Virus record (IMG/VR): IMGVR_UViG_3300045988_146535
DNA from: a virus
Taxonomy: Duplodnaviria > Heunggongvirae > Uroviricota > Caudoviricetes
Strand: one strand, 5' to 3'
DNA: 36,473 bases
Shown one piece after another: positions 2,485 to 25,125 of the stretch (its first letter is position 1; every line of letters starts with the position of its first letter). Below the pieces are notes generated by a model. That model was not told the DNA's origin. It was given only the letters and a program-made list of their open reading frames with translations, and did no database searches. Both the position numbers and the translations under genes were made by a program.

Positions 2485-3069
2485 TTACTCCGGATATTTA
2501 AAAATTACGTAGGTATGAGACGGACAGAGTTTGTTAAGCACACATTCGACAACGGTGTCGCCCCAGATACGCAGTGCGGAATCACAGGGATCGCCACATG
2601 TCATCCAGGTGGTGTTTGTGGCGGCTGGCATGTTGACCTGCCAGTAATACCGCCATTCCGGCGCATTCACCGCGTCAGTACAGGCCGATGAGCAGGTGAA
2701 CGTGCTTTTGTCGTATCGCGTGATGGTAGCGTCTGGTCTGCCCAGGGCAGCAAGCTGTGCAAGATAAAAATTCTCGTTGATGCCGCCCGCCAGGTTAACC
2801 TTCGCATCCAGCCGTTGCTGACGCTGGCGAAGGGTCTGTGTCCCTGCGGGAATACATTCATCCGGCAGACCGCACAGACGCTCCCAGCGGTTTATCAGTT
2901 CAGTGGTGGTGCGCGGATCCAGCTCCCGCATCAGGGCATCCGCACGCTGATGAACGCGGGTTAATGACGGTGCCGCACCGGCAATCGACGGATCGCTGGC
3001 TGACCACGCCGGACCGGGGGGCAACAGTGCCGACAACAGACGGATGTAATCATCGTTTGTCACGTCCAT
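2485..3069 (-). CDS. Mu gp48-like tail/baseplate protein
   Basis: 194 aa following the baseplate J-like gene in the Mu-type tail gene order. Confidence 0.6.
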
Positions 3070-4118
3070 GAAATCGTCCCCAGTACCGCCAGTTCATTTT
3101 TTGCAATGGAGATATTGTCTGCCGGTGCAAGCAACTGATGGCTGTATTCCCCGTTCGCACCGGAAATCGCCTCACTGATACGCGATACCTTCAGTTCTCC
3201 CTGCGGATAACCATCACGCAGCAGGAACGAACGCAACTCCGCGGTGATGGCAGCCCGTATTTCCGGTGTGTCCGGCGTCACGCGGATATGAAAATCCACC
3301 GTATGTGCCACCGGCCTGAACACATACAAATCAGAGCCTGCCACCGGGGCCAGTGGCCCGATATGTTGTCTTGCCGCCGTTTCCGTTGATTCTTCCGGAA
3401 TGGGATTAATCAGGTCACTGCTGGCAATCATCACACCGACAGTTCCCGTTCCCATCCAGTGACGGTATGTCCATGCGCGGGTAATGCCGGGCACTTCTTT
3501 AGCCCAGACGACATAGTCCCCGTCAGCCCCGCCCTGCGGCGTCCAGTAATACCGCTCAATGACGCGGGCGCGCCACGTTTCCAGCTCTTCAGTATCAAAT
3601 CCGCCTGTCAGGGTGTCAGCCACACCGGAAGACGGCAGACCATTCACCGGCGTGACCAGGATTAATGCCGTACCGTCGTCAGCGTTACCGACCGCGCCTG
3701 CACTTGAGCAGGCGATCGGCACGCGCAGGACACCACCGGAGCTGGTTGCATCGGCAGTTGCCGTGTACTGAACCAGGTCATCGCGCTGAATAACACTCCC
3801 GGCGGTCACCTTCAGGCCATCGCTGACACCTTCCCAGCGCATATACCCGCTGGCAGCCGTGGCCCCCTTGCGCGGACACCGTTTCATCGCAGCATGTCGC
3901 GCCAGCCAGGACTCATCGCACAGGTCAGGCAGCATGTTCATTGCCAGATAATCGATGTACCCGTAAACCGTATGCAGCGCCGCCGCATACACCTTTGCCC
4001 GCACGTCTTCATCCATGCGCCGGAGCGTGTCGCTGACGTCCAGCCTGGCGAATAAATCGTTACGGAGCATACTGATATTTTCTGCCAGCGTCGGGCGCTG
4101 AAATTCACTGTCCGCCAT
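3060..4118 (-). CDS. Baseplate J-like protein (Mu gp47-like)
   Basis: 352 aa; position and size in the Mu-type baseplate module. Confidence 0.65.
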
Positions 4119-19961: not shown

Positions 19962-20077
19962 TCCTGGTTAAATTTCATTTTTCGCGGGTATAAAAAAACG
20001 ATGGGGCGGGCAGTCCGGAAGACGTCAGGTCACAGGGATTTGACCCGCCCCTCCCCTCTGGCAGTGGGAACTGGTTC

Positions 20078-20428
20078 TCACTTCAGCCGTTCACGGGCCG
20101 TCTTCGCCTTATGACACGGCCAGCACAGGCTCTGCAGATTGCTGTCGGCATCTGTGCCGCCATGCGCTTTAGGGATGATGTGGTCAACGGTTTTCGCCTC
20201 ACGTACCACACCAGCACGCAGACATAACTGACACAGTCCTTTATCACGCTTCAGCACGCACGCGCGGATAACATCCCACTTCGAACCGTAGCCGCGCTGG
20301 TGACGGGATTGTCCAGGTTTGTACTGCTTCCAGCCTTCGCTTTTGTGGCTTTCGCAGTAGCCTGACGGGTCTGTGGTTGTAGAGCGGCAGCCGCGAACAC
20401 GGCAGGCTTTTGGTGTTCGTGGTGGCAT
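20078..20428 (-). CDS. HNH endonuclease (packaging-associated)
   Basis: 116 aa with Cys clusters and HNH motif (VDHIIPKAHGG...N...LC..CH); sits just upstream of the terminase genes. Confidence 0.8.
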   Translation of the reverse strand: MPPRTPKACRVRGCRSTTTDPSGYCESHKSEGWKQYKPGQSRHQRGYGSKWDVIRACVLKRDKGLCQLCLRAGVVREAKTVDHIIPKAHGGTDADSNLQSLCWPCHKAKTARERLK

Positions 20429-20557
20429 GATAGGCTCCCCTCGTAAATGAGGTGATTCACAAAATGAAACAAAAAAAGCACTGGTAGTACCAGCATCCTA
20501 AATTACAGATTCCATAACATGCTCAATGCTGCTAATGGCAAGAAAGGATGTTTTTAA

Positions 20558-20770
20558 ATGACAAGCGATAATCTGGACTCCAAGCCCACAATTGAAGATG
20601 TTGATTTCAAGCATTTGATCTGCGTCGCAGGAGGAATCATCGAGGATCTAAAAGGCCCATTTATATTCAAGGCTCCAGAAAATATTAGGCGATTACTTAA
20701 TCATAAGGGAGTGAATGAAATAAGTAATCTCTCTCAAAAATTTAATGCAGATTCTCCATCTTGCTATTAG
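20558..20770 (+). CDS. Hypothetical small protein (AT-rich island)
   Basis: 70 aa; AGGA-like ribosome-binding site upstream; convergent with the 197-aa membrane protein gene; stem-loop at 20776-20803 after the stop. Confidence 0.4.
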   Translation: MTSDNLDSKPTIEDVDFKHLICVAGGIIEDLKGPFIFKAPENIRRLLNHKGVNEISNLSQKFNADSPSCY

Positions 20771-20846
20771 AGTTCAGCAGCAGGCACTCAGTGAATGCCT
20801 GCTGTAACGACTACTCCAATAATAATGGATGCTCTATGGATACATA

Positions 20847-21440
20847 CTAAAATATGGATGTTAAATAATTGCTAAGTCTTTTTGCATTCTTACAGAATGC
20901 CAAAGCATCTTCCTGAGTACATAAGAGCTTTCCTTGGGATATAGGCTTAATAGACTCTCCTGTTTTTTCATAGAGCTTAACAATGTCACTAGAAATTTTG
21001 TTTGCAGATTGGACATTTTTCAAGGCAGCGATACCTGAAGCCCGCCCTAAAGATGTCCCGTTGATCTCAATCCCCTTTTTAGATGCAAGCGTTATAGCGG
21101 TTAACTCCAATTCGCGCCAAGCTGAAAGTACAGCAACATTAGGCTGAGTACTAGCAAGACTCTCAAAAATATTGAAATTCTCAATGAGTTGAGTCGGCAG
21201 GACAGGATTTGTTCCAGGTAAATTTTTAATAACCTCTATACTTTTAGATTCTATTTCAAACATTTCTTTTTTAAATTTAATCTCATAGTCACCTAGCTTA
21301 ACTGTATTAAGACGACCTAAAACCATTATTATTTCTTTTTTTAAAGTAAAAAAGACAATCAAACAAGCAAGAACAATAAATAAAACATTGCCTTCTTTAA
21401 GAAGCATCTCTATCCAGTAAAAAAAAGTATAGTCCGTCAT
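20847..21440 (-). CDS. Membrane-anchored hypothetical protein (moron downstream of the lysis cassette)
   Basis: 197 aa; N-terminal transmembrane segment LFIVLACLIVFFTL; visibly AT-rich. Confidence 0.6.
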   Translation of the reverse strand: MTDYTFFYWIEMLLKEGNVLFIVLACLIVFFTLKKEIIMVLGRLNTVKLGDYEIKFKKEMFEIESKSIEVIKNLPGTNPVLPTQLIENFNIFESLASTQPNVAVLSAWRELELTAITLASKKGIEINGTSLGRASGIAALKNVQSANKISSDIVKLYEKTGESIKPISQGKLLCTQEDALAFCKNAKRLSNYLTSIF

Positions 21441-21634
21441 TTTCAGTTCTCAAATAGAAATAGTTCTCTCAGTATACGTATATTGAACTCTGCTATCACT
21501 TAGTTTATACAACGTTATGCTGGCCACACGCTCGTAGTTGACGTGCATGTGGCTACTCGCTATTTTAGGTATTTGGGACATCTTCATTAATGCTGAACAG
21601 GCACTTCTTGCTGCGGTCTTTCCACTTTACTGCT

Positions 21635-21892
21635 TCATGGCTCACTCTTCTCTGCTTCAATTTTACGAATATCAGCCTTATCCCTATTACAGGCAGCCAG
21701 CACTGACAGCAGGCTCACGTTTAAATCCAGACTATCTTTGTAAGTCAGCGGATCAGGAATAGCTGGCTGTGGGGTTTCAGCGGTCAGGTTCGCCGGTAGT
21801 GGTACCGCCGGAACTGGCACGTAAATTGTCCGCGTACCGGCGCAGCCGCTCAGTTGCACGAGCAGGAACAAGACGGGAAGCGCAATCATCAT
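21635..21892 (-). CDS. Rz1-like outer-membrane spanin lipoprotein (overlapping Rz in another frame)
   Basis: Signal peptide with lipobox LVQLSGCAG and Pro-rich body; start taken at the internal MMIALPV of ORF 21635-21958. Confidence 0.55.
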   Translation of the reverse strand: MMIALPVLFLLVQLSGCAGTRTIYVPVPAVPLPANLTAETPQPAIPDPLTYKDSLDLNVSLLSVLAACNRDKADIRKIEAEKSEP

Positions 21893-22169
21893 TCTCAACA
21901 GCCACTTTGATATCTTCCTGGGTTCTCTGTGACTCCAGTGCGATCTGCTGTTTTGCATGCTGGTTAGCCTCCAGAACTGTATTTAAGATTTGTATTGATT
22001 GCAGGACGTTATTGGTAATGGCAGTTGCCGATTCAGCATTTTGTACAGCCTCATCAGCACGTTTCTTTTCATGCTGATATTTGCTGTAGTAGTAATTCGC
22101 TGACCAGATGAAAGAGCCAATGACAGTAAAGAAGAAAGCAGAGATAGCCAACTTATAACTCAACTTCAT
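21777..22169 (-). CDS. Rz-like inner-membrane spanin
   Basis: 130 aa; N-terminal transmembrane segment then a charged helical region; immediately after the endolysin. Confidence 0.65.
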   Translation of the reverse strand: MKLSYKLAISAFFFTVIGSFIWSANYYYSKYQHEKKRADEAVQNAESATAITNNVLQSIQILNTVLEANQHAKQQIALESQRTQEDIKVAVENDDCASRLVPARATERLRRYADNLRASSGGTTTGEPDR

Positions 22170-23240: not shown

Positions 23241-24350
23241 ATGAAGAAAATCGAAAAACTGTTCACTGAAGTAATACGGAAGTTGCGCCATAAGAAATTT
23301 ATGCGCTCGATAGCTAGTAAAAGAAGCACAACAGAAAGAAAGCTAAAACGTAATGGAAGTTTAAAAAAAATCGCTCCAGAGAAAATACTTGCTCCAACCA
23401 TACTTGATATTTACAAGGCGGAATATCATGAGAATGTGGTTAATTTTATAGAAAAAATAGAAAACAAAGCAAAGACAGGAAATAAAAAGATATATATATG
23501 TTTTAGAAATACAATTCATATATCGGCTGCTGCTGGCTTATTTCTTCTTGCAAAACTAGAGACGTTAAAAAGCAATCATAGGGACTTAAAATATATCGTA
23601 GCCAAACCGCCAATCAAAACTTCATCAAAAGGAGAACAGCACGTTGTTGATTCTGTTTTGAACAGAATCGGAATCTATGCAGCATTAGGTGTTAAATCAA
23701 GAGAAATGAGAGAAACTCCGTCTGTAAAATGTTGGGAGGTAATTCGTGGCGAACTAGTAGATTCGGAAATTGCAGGAAACTTATTAGAAACAATCACAGA
23801 AAAAATGGGTACCGATTATACAGATTTATATCGTCCCTTGATAGAAGCCATGTCTAATTCAGTAGAACATGCATATCGAGACGATTTATATGACTCAAAT
23901 AAAAATAACAATAAAAATAAATGGTGGTGCTTTGCTGCAATTATGAACAACAAGTCAATTATGAACAACAAGTTAATATTACTAATTTGTGACCTCGGTG
24001 TAGGTATACCTAAAACGTTAAAACTTACTCAAGGTGAAAAGGTTCTTGCAAAGCTAACCGAGTTCCTTGGTAAGCCATTAGTCCTTGATTCAGAACATAT
24101 AAAAGCCTCATTGCAGGTTAAACGAACCCGAACAAAGCTTGGATACAGAGGGAAAGGAGGAACTGATTTACAATCTATCATAGAAAACTTTGAAAATGCA
24201 CAATTACGAATTATATCCAACAAAGGAAATTACAGATATACTCATCGTAAGAAAGCAAGACCAGAGTTAATGTGGGATGCCAAACATTCCATCAACGGTA
24301 CTATAGTTGAATGGAGCGTACCGCTACCAAATGAAGGAGACTCTCAATGA
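23241..24350 (+). CDS. GHKL/HATPase_c-type ATPase (RsbW-like serine-kinase fold) with an uncharacterised N-terminal region
   Basis: 369 aa; N-box-like EAMSNSVEHAY, G1-like ICDLGVGIP (DxGxG) and G2-like GYRGKGGTDL; visibly AT-rich; opposite strand to the flanking late genes. Confidence 0.6.
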   Translation: MKKIEKLFTEVIRKLRHKKFMRSIASKRSTTERKLKRNGSLKKIAPEKILAPTILDIYKAEYHENVVNFIEKIENKAKTGNKKIYICFRNTIHISAAAGLFLLAKLETLKSNHRDLKYIVAKPPIKTSSKGEQHVVDSVLNRIGIYAALGVKSREMRETPSVKCWEVIRGELVDSEIAGNLLETITEKMGTDYTDLYRPLIEAMSNSVEHAYRDDLYDSNKNNNKNKWWCFAAIMNNKSIMNNKLILLICDLGVGIPKTLKLTQGEKVLAKLTEFLGKPLVLDSEHIKASLQVKRTRTKLGYRGKGGTDLQSIIENFENAQLRIISNKGNYRYTHRKKARPELMWDAKHSINGTIVEWSVPLPNEGDSQ

Positions 24351-24664
24351 AAACCTTATTTATCAAGGACTTTTCAAGATTCCCGGGGCCTAGATACGAA
24401 AGGTTAGGTGAAAACAGTGGCGAAAAATTCCGCGATTTATTTTTGATACCAGCACTTAACGAAAATCCAGACTTAGTCATTGACTTTGATGGTGTTTTTG
24501 GCTATGGCTCATCTTTCCTTGAGGAGGCCTTTGGAGGTTTGGTGCGTAAAGGGATAGAGCGCGAAAAATTGGAGAAGCTTAAGAAGAATCTCAAAAGTAA
24601 AGATCAATACATTATTGAGGAAGTAATTTCATATATTGATGATGCTCTGCGAGATCTAAAATAA
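24347..24664 (+). CDS. STAS-like small protein (DUF4325-like, anti-sigma-antagonist fold)
   Basis: 105 aa; VIDFDGVFGYGSSFLEEAFGGL matches the DUF4325 core pattern as I recall it; start overlaps the stop of the upstream gene. Confidence 0.5.
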   Translation: MKTLFIKDFSRFPGPRYERLGENSGEKFRDLFLIPALNENPDLVIDFDGVFGYGSSFLEEAFGGLVRKGIEREKLEKLKKNLKSKDQYIIEEVISYIDDALRDLK

Positions 24665-25125
24665 TGGACACTGACGTTACTCAGAATTTATGGACAATGC
24701 CTGCAACGATTATAGCGATTGTTGGCATTTTTTTAACAATATTAGGCTGGATAGTTACAGCAATACTTACTCGCATTAACAATGCGAAGAATTTAAAAAA
24801 ACTAGAAATAAATAGACTTATTGATGAGTTATTTTATAAATTAGATTTTATTTATAGCGAAATGCTTGAATTGCTGCGAGACGATAAAAAAGACAAACAA
24901 GTCCTATATTACATTTTTACATCATCAGTAAGGCATGTTGAGTTTATTTGCGAGCGAATTGAACTATTAGACAACAAAAAAAACAAAGACAATGGATTAA
25001 TATCTGAATTAAGACAAGCATGTACTAACGATGCGAAATATGAAAAAGAAAAAATTGGAACAACATTACATGAAATCCAAAGCGCTAATGAAAAACTCAA
25101 AAACAAATATCTGAAATCATTTTAA
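24664..25125 (+). CDS. Membrane protein (one N-terminal transmembrane helix, charged coiled-coil-like C-terminal region)
   Basis: 153 aa; transmembrane segment ATIIAIVGIFLTILGWIVTAILT; ATGG overlap with the upstream stop. Confidence 0.55.
   Translation: MDTDVTQNLWTMPATIIAIVGIFLTILGWIVTAILTRINNAKNLKKLEINRLIDELFYKLDFIYSEMLELLRDDKKDKQVLYYIFTSSVRHVEFICERIELLDNKKNKDNGLISELRQACTNDAKYEKEKIGTTLHEIQSANEKLKNKYLKSF

Follow-up and report, generated by a model that had tools for sequence, protein, structure and literature searches.

A cargo island behind the spanin genes of Escherichia coli prophages with a candidate membrane-anchored, non-catalytic HEPN-fold protein

The DNA considered here is a 36,473-nucleotide (nt) virus record (IMG/VR IMGVR_UViG_3300045988_146535, Caudoviricetes; hereafter the window, meaning the whole stretch) that represents an Escherichia coli prophage, and our subject is an AT-rich island of two convergent genes in its late operon. 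As annotated by PGAP, this operon runs on the minus strand through a Q antiterminator, a holin (of the lambda family), a GH24 lysozyme, an Rz1-like LysC, a hypothetical protein of 197 amino acids (aa), an HNH endonuclease, a P27-family small terminase, the large terminase and the portal, and all flanking lysis and packaging genes lie on that strand. The island itself (20429 to ~21550, delimited by base composition and by comparison with an empty site and a cargo variant) holds the gene for the 197-aa protein on the minus strand (20847-21440; open reading frame (ORF) and PGAP annotation, WP_001560812.1) and a gene for a soluble protein of 70 aa on the plus strand (20558-20770; ORF and homologue comparison, not called by PGAP), with a strong hairpin (20778-20804) between them. 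Upstream lie the spanin genes Rz1/LysC (21635-21958) and Rz (21777-22169), both on the minus strand and assigned by ORF, family match and annotation; downstream lies the HNH endonuclease gene of the packaging module (20078-20428, minus strand; Pfam HNH, 2.3e-16, and PGAP annotation). Judged by sequence comparison, the 197-aa protein is a membrane-anchored protein with a HEPN fold that has neither the catalytic motif nor the WP motif of its relatives, and the junction in which it sits is a hotspot for exchanged cargo.

Composition and comparison agree on the extent of the island. Over positions 20400-21600 the GC content is 0.31-0.40, whereas the packaging genes have 0.55-0.59 and the lysis genes 0.47-0.51. 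On the left, similarity to an empty-site locus (L020) stops exactly at the HNH start codon (20428), and on the right similarity to a cargo variant (L022) resumes at 21550. The initial annotation had placed an AT-rich island at 20430-21540, with a minus-strand 197-aa and a plus-strand 70-aa reading frame converging between Rz/Rz1 and the packaging genes, and both the island and this arrangement are borne out. Of 5426 complete E. coli genomes, 20 contain a match of 99-100% identity to a 1.25-kb query that spans the island, on the chromosome every time; in strain FDAARGOS_1267 the prophage adjoins tRNA-Thr and proA. Among seven E. coli copies the island differs by ~1% (~99% identity) while HNH differs by ~8%, and the divergence of Rz/Rz1 lies far above that of HNH in two of six comparison loci that carry a near-identical island. 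Since the island stays near-identical while its flanks diverge, it must have been exchanged between prophages as a unit. We also observed that the prophage carrying the window (L001, NZ_CP069522.1 3873644-3914894) is a mosaic by its annotated genes, with e14-type genes (ymfK/L/T/Q/R), CPS-53-type genes (yfdP/Q/R/T), an integrase beside tRNA-Thr and proA, and a Mu-like baseplate and contractile-tail module.

The site between Rz1 and HNH is variable across related prophages. When a query in which HNH was joined directly to Rz1, with the island spliced out, was searched against E. coli genomes, it matched in 1234 of them, and in 298 the two halves lay close together (at least 80% of the query covered, flanks within ~850 nt). 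Sampled gaps between Rz1 and HNH ranged from ~20 to 830 nt, the shortest spans (717-718 nt) being empty sites. In one such locus only 26 nt separate the two genes (L020), and elsewhere the same junction holds a 107-aa GrlR-family regulator (WP_000651450.1; L021), a 93-aa protein encoded on the plus strand (L022), a 64-aa protein (L023) or a 113-aa protein accompanied by a homologue of the 70-aa protein (L030), the last three cargo proteins having no assigned function. The slot is thus polymorphic, with an empty site and four alternative cargos. The features by which a moron is recognised are present in the island: presence or absence at a fixed site, deviant GC (34% vs ~55%), an island more conserved than its flanks, a distal terminator and a conserved -10-like element. 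We conclude that P27/HK97-type E. coli prophages have a cargo hotspot between Rz1 and HNH. The proposal that this position carries cargo therefore holds: the island is horizontally acquired and sits at a known site for morons, which some E. coli prophages leave empty and others fill with unrelated small genes. In lambda, the slot right after Rz/Rz1 is occupied by bor, a lipoprotein gene that is read against late transcription.

The 197-aa protein belongs to a narrow clade. It matches phrog_30030, a family without known function, and gave no match in Pfam (E <= 1), NCBIfam or PADLOC; among 5.8 billion proteins only six homologue clusters were found, with 47-69% identity and conservation from end to end. 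Together with these six homologues it forms a clade of seven members with 49 invariant alignment columns, whose genes all have 34-36% GC regardless of the host prophage. Searches of the island and its protein against phage and plasmid collections (megablast, tblastn) returned no match, profile scans of the contigs of 185,579 species-representative genomes with A1 (the profile of the seven clade members) and A6 returned no relative, and in IMG/VR only variants of the same E. coli prophage were found. Within the clade the ratio of non-synonymous to synonymous substitution rates (dN/dS) is 0.11-0.27 for pairs without synonymous saturation, a pattern by which the gene is under purifying selection and not decaying. 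In the allele of strain AR_0061, PGAP begins the coding sequence at Met12. A shorter product starting at Met12 or at Met39 (phrog_30030 starts at residue 39) was considered and rejected: the homologues share a conserved stretch at residues 7-17, and one of them (P0004) has Leu in place of Met12.

The protein has one strongly hydrophobic segment, with Kyte-Doolittle means of ~2.2 over residues ~13-40, and a single predicted transmembrane helix at residues 18-33 (codons 21342-21389, minus strand; hydropathy, charge asymmetry and alignment). Its N-terminal tail has a net charge of -2 and residues 34-60 hold seven K/R against four D/E, an asymmetry that favours a topology with the N-terminus out and the C-terminus in. 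The membrane anchor put forward in the initial annotation is accordingly in line with both hydropathy and charge. The rest of the chain, residues ~83-197 (codons 20850-21194, minus strand), is predicted to form a cytoplasmic helical domain of the HEPN fold.

The assignment to HEPN is a matter of profile homology. A search with A1 against 1.84 billion representative proteins returned 271 proteins at E <= 1e-3, mostly of ~180-200 aa and aligned over nearly their full length, P0013 (1.4e-17) and P0014 (6.7e-13) among them. Relatives reach the gathering threshold of Pfam DUF4145 (PF13643; 23.1 bits), with 24.4 for P0013 and 23.1 for P0017; others carry PF13643 in a precomputed domain table, and some weakly match other HEPN families. 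When A1 was aligned by hhalign with a profile of the relatives (A7), the probability was 99.84% (E 1.8e-30) over 186 aligned columns. As the window protein itself falls below the PF13643 threshold that its relatives reach, its membership of DUF4145 is transitive and runs through profile homology only. At the level of the fold, an all-alpha up-down helical bundle, the protein belongs to the HEPN superfamily, and LsoA, RnlA and HepT are among its structural matches; Foldseek searches against PDB and BFVD gave no significant match, with HEPN proteins ranked first in PDB, and sequence searches of PDB with A1, A2 (a MAFFT alignment of the clade with its relatives) and A6 gave nothing significant. 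The remote-homology and structure searches thus placed the 197-aa protein, by profile, in the HEPN superfamily and matched the 70-aa protein to no family or solved structure.

The same alignments reveal what the clade has lost. In the relatives (A7), the W and P of the transmembrane helix and the R and H of an LRxLRNxAxH motif, which is the HEPN Rx4H motif where the third core helix meets the fourth, are invariant; among relatives of 150-230 aa, WP is found in 235/241, Rx4-6H in 221/241 and both in 219/241. None of the seven clade members has either WP or Rx4-6H. Where the relatives have WP, the clade has I-V (as in the window), I-T or V-V. The site of the catalytic motif corresponds to codons 158-169 of the window gene (20934-20969, minus strand; EKTGESIKPISQ), and MAFFT and an independent hhalign both set TGESIKPISQG opposite the motif of the relatives, so that none of R, N and H is kept there, and the clade has no invariant histidine. 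Scaffold positions common to the family are kept (F56, P100, W108 and E112), and the clade has invariant residues of its own (R133-A-S-G, K141, Y157, K165, S168, C174, D178 and C183). Window clade and catalytic relatives are ~20-30% identical. With the Rx4H motif absent, a role of the 197-aa protein as a HEPN RNase 'toxin' is unlikely.

The second gene is shorter and harder to recognise. Its ATG is preceded by AAAGGA at a distance of 9 nt, and its product matches phrog_22590, a family with no assigned function. We considered that this ORF might be spurious, given its chance-level length (an ORF of at least 70 aa occurs in 236 of 2000, or 11.8%, of dinucleotide shuffles of the 418-nt spacer), the missing PGAP call, the lack of distant homologues and of a promoter match, and its absence beside the 197-aa homologues, but a second copy overturned this. 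A sensitive nucleotide search found the segment at 70% nucleotide identity in five further E. coli genomes, and the copy in L030 (1746-1955) encodes a homologue with 63% protein identity, the same start and stop, and an in-frame 3-nt indel. For this pair dN/dS is 0.16, the differences are distributed 17/16/35 over the three codon positions, and only the 70-aa frame is open in both copies, the other five frames holding stops. By these signs the 70-aa gene is real and under purifying selection. The protein matched nothing in Pfam (MNT and other antitoxin families included), NCBIfam, PADLOC or among solved structures, and an AF2 model from the single sequence (pLDDT 67, three helices) was not usable. 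Truncated variants also exist, of 56 aa (P0009) and 51 aa (P0010/L025). The L025 copy (474-629) lies on a short metagenome contig that keeps the 3' end of the 197-aa ORF, and its truncation could be a sequencing error.

Directly behind the 70-aa gene, the hairpin pairs arms 20778-20790 and 20792-20804 at 12 of 13 positions, with folding energies of -20.4 kcal/mol (plus strand; z -3.8 vs shuffles) and -22.7 kcal/mol (minus strand; z -3.9). No U-run follows it on either strand, and it is therefore not a canonical intrinsic terminator; a search of Rfam with positions 20000-22000 gave a sub-threshold chance match only. Its homologue in L030 (-20.2 kcal/mol) carries a compensatory C-G to T-A change and a repaired mismatch. 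Because the hairpin is kept beside the L030 copy of the 70-aa gene, it belongs to the 70-aa cassette. The stem-loop that had been described as shared by both genes (20776-20803) thus exists as a strong structure, but it travels with the 70-aa gene and is not equally shared.

Comparison of loci shows that the two genes are separable. In the five further E. coli genomes, the 70-aa gene and its hairpin stand next to HNH and beside the different 113-aa gene, and the 197-aa gene is missing. Conversely, no relative of the 70-aa gene lies beside the 197-aa homologues of L002, L003, L005 and L024, four of five homologue loci. L002 has Rz, the 197-aa homologue and a convergent 184-aa ORF; L003 a spanin gene, the homologue, a terminator, a 72-aa ORF and HNH; L005 and L024 an Rz-like spanin gene (phrog_1275), the homologue, a terminator and HNH. 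In the fifth locus, L026, where the 70-aa gene was screened for by nucleotide similarity only, a 149-aa ORF converges on the homologue. When the window is aligned with L024 and L005 downstream of the 197-aa gene, an insertion of ~207 nt (~20573-20779) corresponds to the body of the 70-aa ORF and one arm of the hairpin. Beside the homologue in L005 (the P0003 locus) we also noted an HNH gene that is apparently degenerate (2340-2640, with an in-frame stop soon after a conserved start), followed by an AT-rich gene (2683-3129) whose 148-aa product (phrog_6169, no assigned function) has a hydrophobic helix at the N-terminus.

Candidate signals for transcription lie on both sides of the 197-aa gene. 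Upstream, a promoter-like element (21471-21499, minus strand; GTGATA-17-TATACT) matches the consensus at 9 of 12 positions, and its -10-like hexamer has a conserved counterpart, TATAGT, in the corresponding position of L024 and L005; as an own promoter of the 197-aa gene this element is suggestive only. The best-scoring sigma-70-like site (21453-21426, minus strand; TTGAGA-16-TATACT, 10/12) was set aside as probably due to chance, since it spans the start codon, would start the transcript inside the 197-aa ORF and is unconserved in L024 and L005. A consensus scan found no terminator between Rz1 and the 197-aa gene on the minus strand, so late transcripts should read into the gene. At the downstream end of the cargo, just before HNH, a terminator-like element (20469-20495, minus strand) of a stem at 20495-20479 and a T-run is weak (-7.4 kcal/mol, z -1.05) and aligns with a far stronger canonical terminator that directly follows the 197-aa homologue in L024 (-15.8 kcal/mol, z -3.0) and L003. 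As the weakened terminator lies beyond the inserted 70-aa cassette, a minus-strand transcript would run antisense through the 70-aa gene. For the latter, a consensus scan found no convincing sigma-70 promoter.

The wider family gives these findings their context. Anantharaman et al. (2013, Biol Direct 8:15; PMC3710099, section 15) described proteins with a WP transmembrane helix and a DUF4145-type HEPN domain as the first group of bacterial membrane-associated HEPN domains, predicted that they are cytoplasmic domains of inner-membrane proteins and called the WP 'strictly conserved'. The window clade resembles this family in its length of ~185-200 aa, its short N-terminal tail and single transmembrane helix, and in its K(Y/L)xDxExxF juxtamembrane motif, SPxAAxxEAWRxxE helix and C-terminal helices; it differs in lacking WP and Rx4H, in its own invariants and in its fixed position after phage spanin genes. 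The function of the parent family is a predicted one; we found no experimental work on it in the literature since the prediction of 2013, and PADLOC-DB 2.0 has no model for it, the catalytic relatives giving only weak matches (E 0.003-0.004) to unrelated models. The distant relatives are solitary genes, chromosomal and in settings that resemble defence islands, not lysis cassettes. One has an AbiV-HEPN protein, a methyltransferase, a relaxase and Mrr as neighbours (L017), another ResIII and AAA_21-RloB (L018), and a third an ORC/Cdc6-like protein and PLD (L015). A canonical member, with WP and RNEAAH intact, is orf24 of the temperate Escherichia phage D6 (YP_009914701.1; L048 3501-4058, NC_050154.1 25650-26207), which is flanked by ddrB and the portal gene and adjoins the dar anti-restriction genes; copies of this gene also occur on ~16 plasmids (12 from Salmonella or E. 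coli, ~35-96 kb), mostly non-mobilizable. Direct alignment of A1 with the single D6 sequence by hhalign was weak (12%), and the link between the two runs via the family profile only. We found no report of a functional test of D6 orf24.

Taken together, these results lead us to read the island as two separate, exchanged cargo cassettes, of which the first would encode a non-catalytic, membrane-tethered pseudo-HEPN protein that acts as an accessory factor in conflict, and we give this joint reading a probability of roughly 0.55. The first cassette is co-directional with the late operon of a lambdoid-type prophage on the minus strand, with its own promoter-like element and a distal terminator. 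Its product would be a single-pass inner-membrane protein with the N-terminus out, the C-terminus in and a cytoplasmic HEPN-fold domain, from a clade that descends from the WP transmembrane and DUF4145 family and lost WP and Rx4H while remaining constrained. As the Rx4H motif is lost yet the gene is under purifying selection, the protein is not a canonical HEPN RNase and would have to bind or oligomerise at the membrane. It may serve in superinfection exclusion or abortive infection, possibly in counter-defence, with its gene read through from the late promoter and perhaps also expressed in the lysogen. The second cassette, on the plus strand, consists of the gene for the conserved 70-aa soluble protein and the hairpin behind it. 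A role in conflict is favoured by the distant relatives near defence genes, by the D6 member beside dar genes and by the DUF4145 domains that are the catalytic effectors of the validated defences RAZR/PD-T7-4 (PMC13017515), BxaP and Ishtar.

Several observations weigh on the other side. The topology of the 197-aa protein is read solely from hydropathy and charge. In the complete genome of strain AR_0061 (L010) the 197-aa gene has lost one base pair close to its 5' end (window 21419), which causes an N-terminal frameshift. The promoter match is weak (9/12), in a scan that yielded six sites in the region vs 4.3 expected by chance. No PADLOC model matches the 197-aa protein or its catalytic relatives, and we found no tested defence role for the transmembrane family. 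Finally, in five of six contexts the 197-aa gene lies directly behind co-directional spanin genes, of three spanin families, an arrangement that a lysis-linked or late phage-benefit role would also fit.

A late function linked to lysis is, for this last reason, the strongest rival, although we consider it improbable. The 197-aa gene would then not be a moron expressed in the lysogen but would encode a late-transcribed lysis accessory, such as a protein that sets when the holin or spanins act or that controls membrane integrity as infection ends. Spanin genes stand immediately upstream and co-directional in the window, L002, L003, L024 and L005, and they belong to unrelated families (DUF2570/LysC, PF03245 Rz and phrog_1275); the open path for transcription after Rz1 points the same way, as does the place of the D6 relative among the co-directional genes darA/ddrA/ddrB and portal, which we take to be late genes. 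Most related prophages, however, do without the gene, their slot being empty or occupied by unrelated cargo, a GC of 34% is foreign to the lysis module, and the wider family is not found in lysis cassettes. The empty slots and alternative cargos argue that the position behind the spanins reflects where cargo is tolerated.

Counter-defence by a decoy is doubtful. Here, a dead membrane-anchored HEPN copy would poison or occupy the catalytic transmembrane HEPN proteins that serve the host or rival elements in defence, or whatever triggers these proteins. HEPN domains work as dimers with composite active sites, the losses fall precisely on the WP signature and the catalytic residues R, N and H and spare F56, P100, W108 and E112, catalytic members circulate on the E. 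coli and Salmonella plasmids and phage D6 mentioned above, and a late-operon position suits a gene of benefit to the phage. Against this, nothing points to co-occurrence with catalytic members or to their being targeted, an identity of ~20-30% to them is low for heterodimer mimicry, and anti-defence genes are usually early genes.

The initial annotation had suggested that the 197-aa and 70-aa proteins form a toxin/antitoxin or two-gene abortive-infection pair, which we now regard as highly unlikely. The genes are neighbours that converge on an intervening hairpin, all 20 E. coli genomes with the island have inherited both, and HEPN proteins are frequently toxins, the structural matches LsoA, RnlA and HepT among them. 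Yet each gene occurs without the other, and the neighbours downstream of the homologues in L002, L003, L005 and L024 are unrelated to the 70-aa gene. Systems like HEPN-MNT or RnlAB/LsoAB have toxin and antitoxin inherited together, whereas the genes of the island are separable, convergent and not operonic. The Rx4H motif needed for HEPN toxicity is lost, the 70-aa protein matches no antitoxin family in Pfam, and truncated 70-aa variants occur (P0009, and L025 together with the 3' end of the 197-aa ORF). The toxin/antitoxin reading is largely refuted by this separability and rejected. What survives of the suggested link to abortive infection is the membership of the 197-aa protein in the HEPN superfamily, which is heavily used in abortive-infection, toxin-antitoxin and CRISPR-accessory systems; the pair does not.

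We hold it equally implausible that the protein is a Bor-type periplasmic or outer-membrane lipoprotein, with Cys26 in 'VLAC' as its lipobox and Cys174 and Cys183 forming a periplasmic disulfide. All three cysteines are invariant in the clade, and the corresponding slot of lambda carries bor. The conservation and charge of the N-terminus nevertheless led us to reject this identity: ahead of the hydrophobic segment lie 17 conserved residues of net negative charge that offer no positive n-region, hydrophobicity extends seven residues beyond Cys26, and a K/R cluster follows the helix. In addition, clade members have L, I or G at position -2 of the putative lipobox, which is atypical, and family members are predicted to be cytoplasmic (PMC3710099). 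The weakest alternative, a decaying remnant made up of a functionless relic of a 197-aa gene and a chance ORF of 70 aa, and with it the outcome that would have undone the initial annotation (both ORFs degenerate), can draw on the loss of both family hallmarks, the AR_0061 frameshift and the chance-level length and missing PGAP call of the 70-aa ORF, and we dismiss it in view of dN/dS values of 0.11-0.27 across a 197-aa clade otherwise saturated at synonymous sites, its 49 invariant columns, and the dN/dS of 0.16, in-frame indel and conserved stop of the 70-aa gene.

A second AT-rich island of the window deserves mention in its own right. It spans 23241-25125 on the plus strand (GC 0.30-0.40) between the Q antiterminator and holin genes, a slot in which Shiga toxin (Stx) phages carry their toxin genes, and holds three co-directional genes. 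The first encodes a 369-aa protein with GHKL-ATPase-like motifs by eye (phrog_3364; no Pfam match, and a weak, sub-threshold PADLOC match to Cas6b, E 0.0026), the second a 105-aa STAS-like DUF4325 protein (PF14213, 2.8e-15) and the third a 153-aa protein (phrog_34309) that has a hydrophobic helix at its N-terminus. We regard the three genes as a candidate accessory or defence system, so far uncharacterised.

Our preferred reading of the Rz1-HNH island, two exchanged cassettes with a pseudo-HEPN conflict factor, would have wider implications. A clade without catalytic and signature motifs that is nonetheless selected and fixed behind lysis genes points to a non-enzymatic use of HEPN at the membrane, and the cargo slots of temperate phages are fertile ground for finding new conflict systems. 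Two small genes that lie side by side and converge within a moron, in turn, do not necessarily form a toxin/antitoxin pair. As the 197-aa gene is small, solitary and present in culturable E. coli, the idea is directly testable.

Known systems resemble the island in different respects. Like the lambda morons of the bor/lom type, it is AT-rich, dispensable cargo between conserved late-gene modules with transcription signals of its own, and its 70-aa gene shares with bor the orientation against late transcription; it differs from them in having no sequence similarity, and neither of its proteins resembles a lipoprotein such as Bor. The HEPN-TM system is a two-gene system of a HEPN protein and a separate membrane protein. 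Its likeness to the window protein lies in a name that combines HEPN and transmembrane and in carriage by mobile elements, and the PADLOC models gave no match. Where two later papers (PMC11087260, PMC12948488) cite its description by Fillol-Salom et al. (2022, Cell 185:3248), HEPN-TM appears as a system of phage-inducible chromosomal islands, an Enterobacteria mobile element with reported anti-phage activity. Single-protein HEPN defences of prophages or E. coli include HepS of Gifsy-1 (PMC13043305), Tha of S. aureus phages (PMC11087260) and RAZR/PD-T7-4 (PMC13017515). HepS, Tha and RAZR are soluble and require an intact Rx4-6H for defence, whereas the window protein is predicted to be membrane-anchored and the motif is absent.

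Csx28, a protein of roughly 180-200 aa, provides a further comparison. We detected no sequence or fold similarity between it and the 197-aa protein; the likeness is one of predicted architecture, a transmembrane helix and a HEPN-like bundle. As an accessory of the type VI-B2 CRISPR-Cas13b system, Csx28 combines an N-terminal transmembrane helix with a cytoplasmic four-helix HEPN-like bundle, does not use its HEPN motif for nuclease activity and forms an oligomeric membrane pore that depolarises infected cells (bioRxiv 10.1101/2021.11.02.466367). By analogy, and tentatively, the stand-alone prophage pseudo-HEPN, having abandoned RNA cleavage and the WP sensor helix of its family, might be a self-sufficient membrane effector, a Csx28-like oligomeric pore or membrane-perturbing switch with no CRISPR partner, which would exclude superinfecting phages from the lysogen or serve the phage late in infection. 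If this were true, an RNase defence family would have been turned into a non-enzymatic membrane weapon and fixed in the lambdoid post-lysis cargo slot, and for such a non-catalytic, membrane-anchored HEPN effector Csx28 is the precedent.

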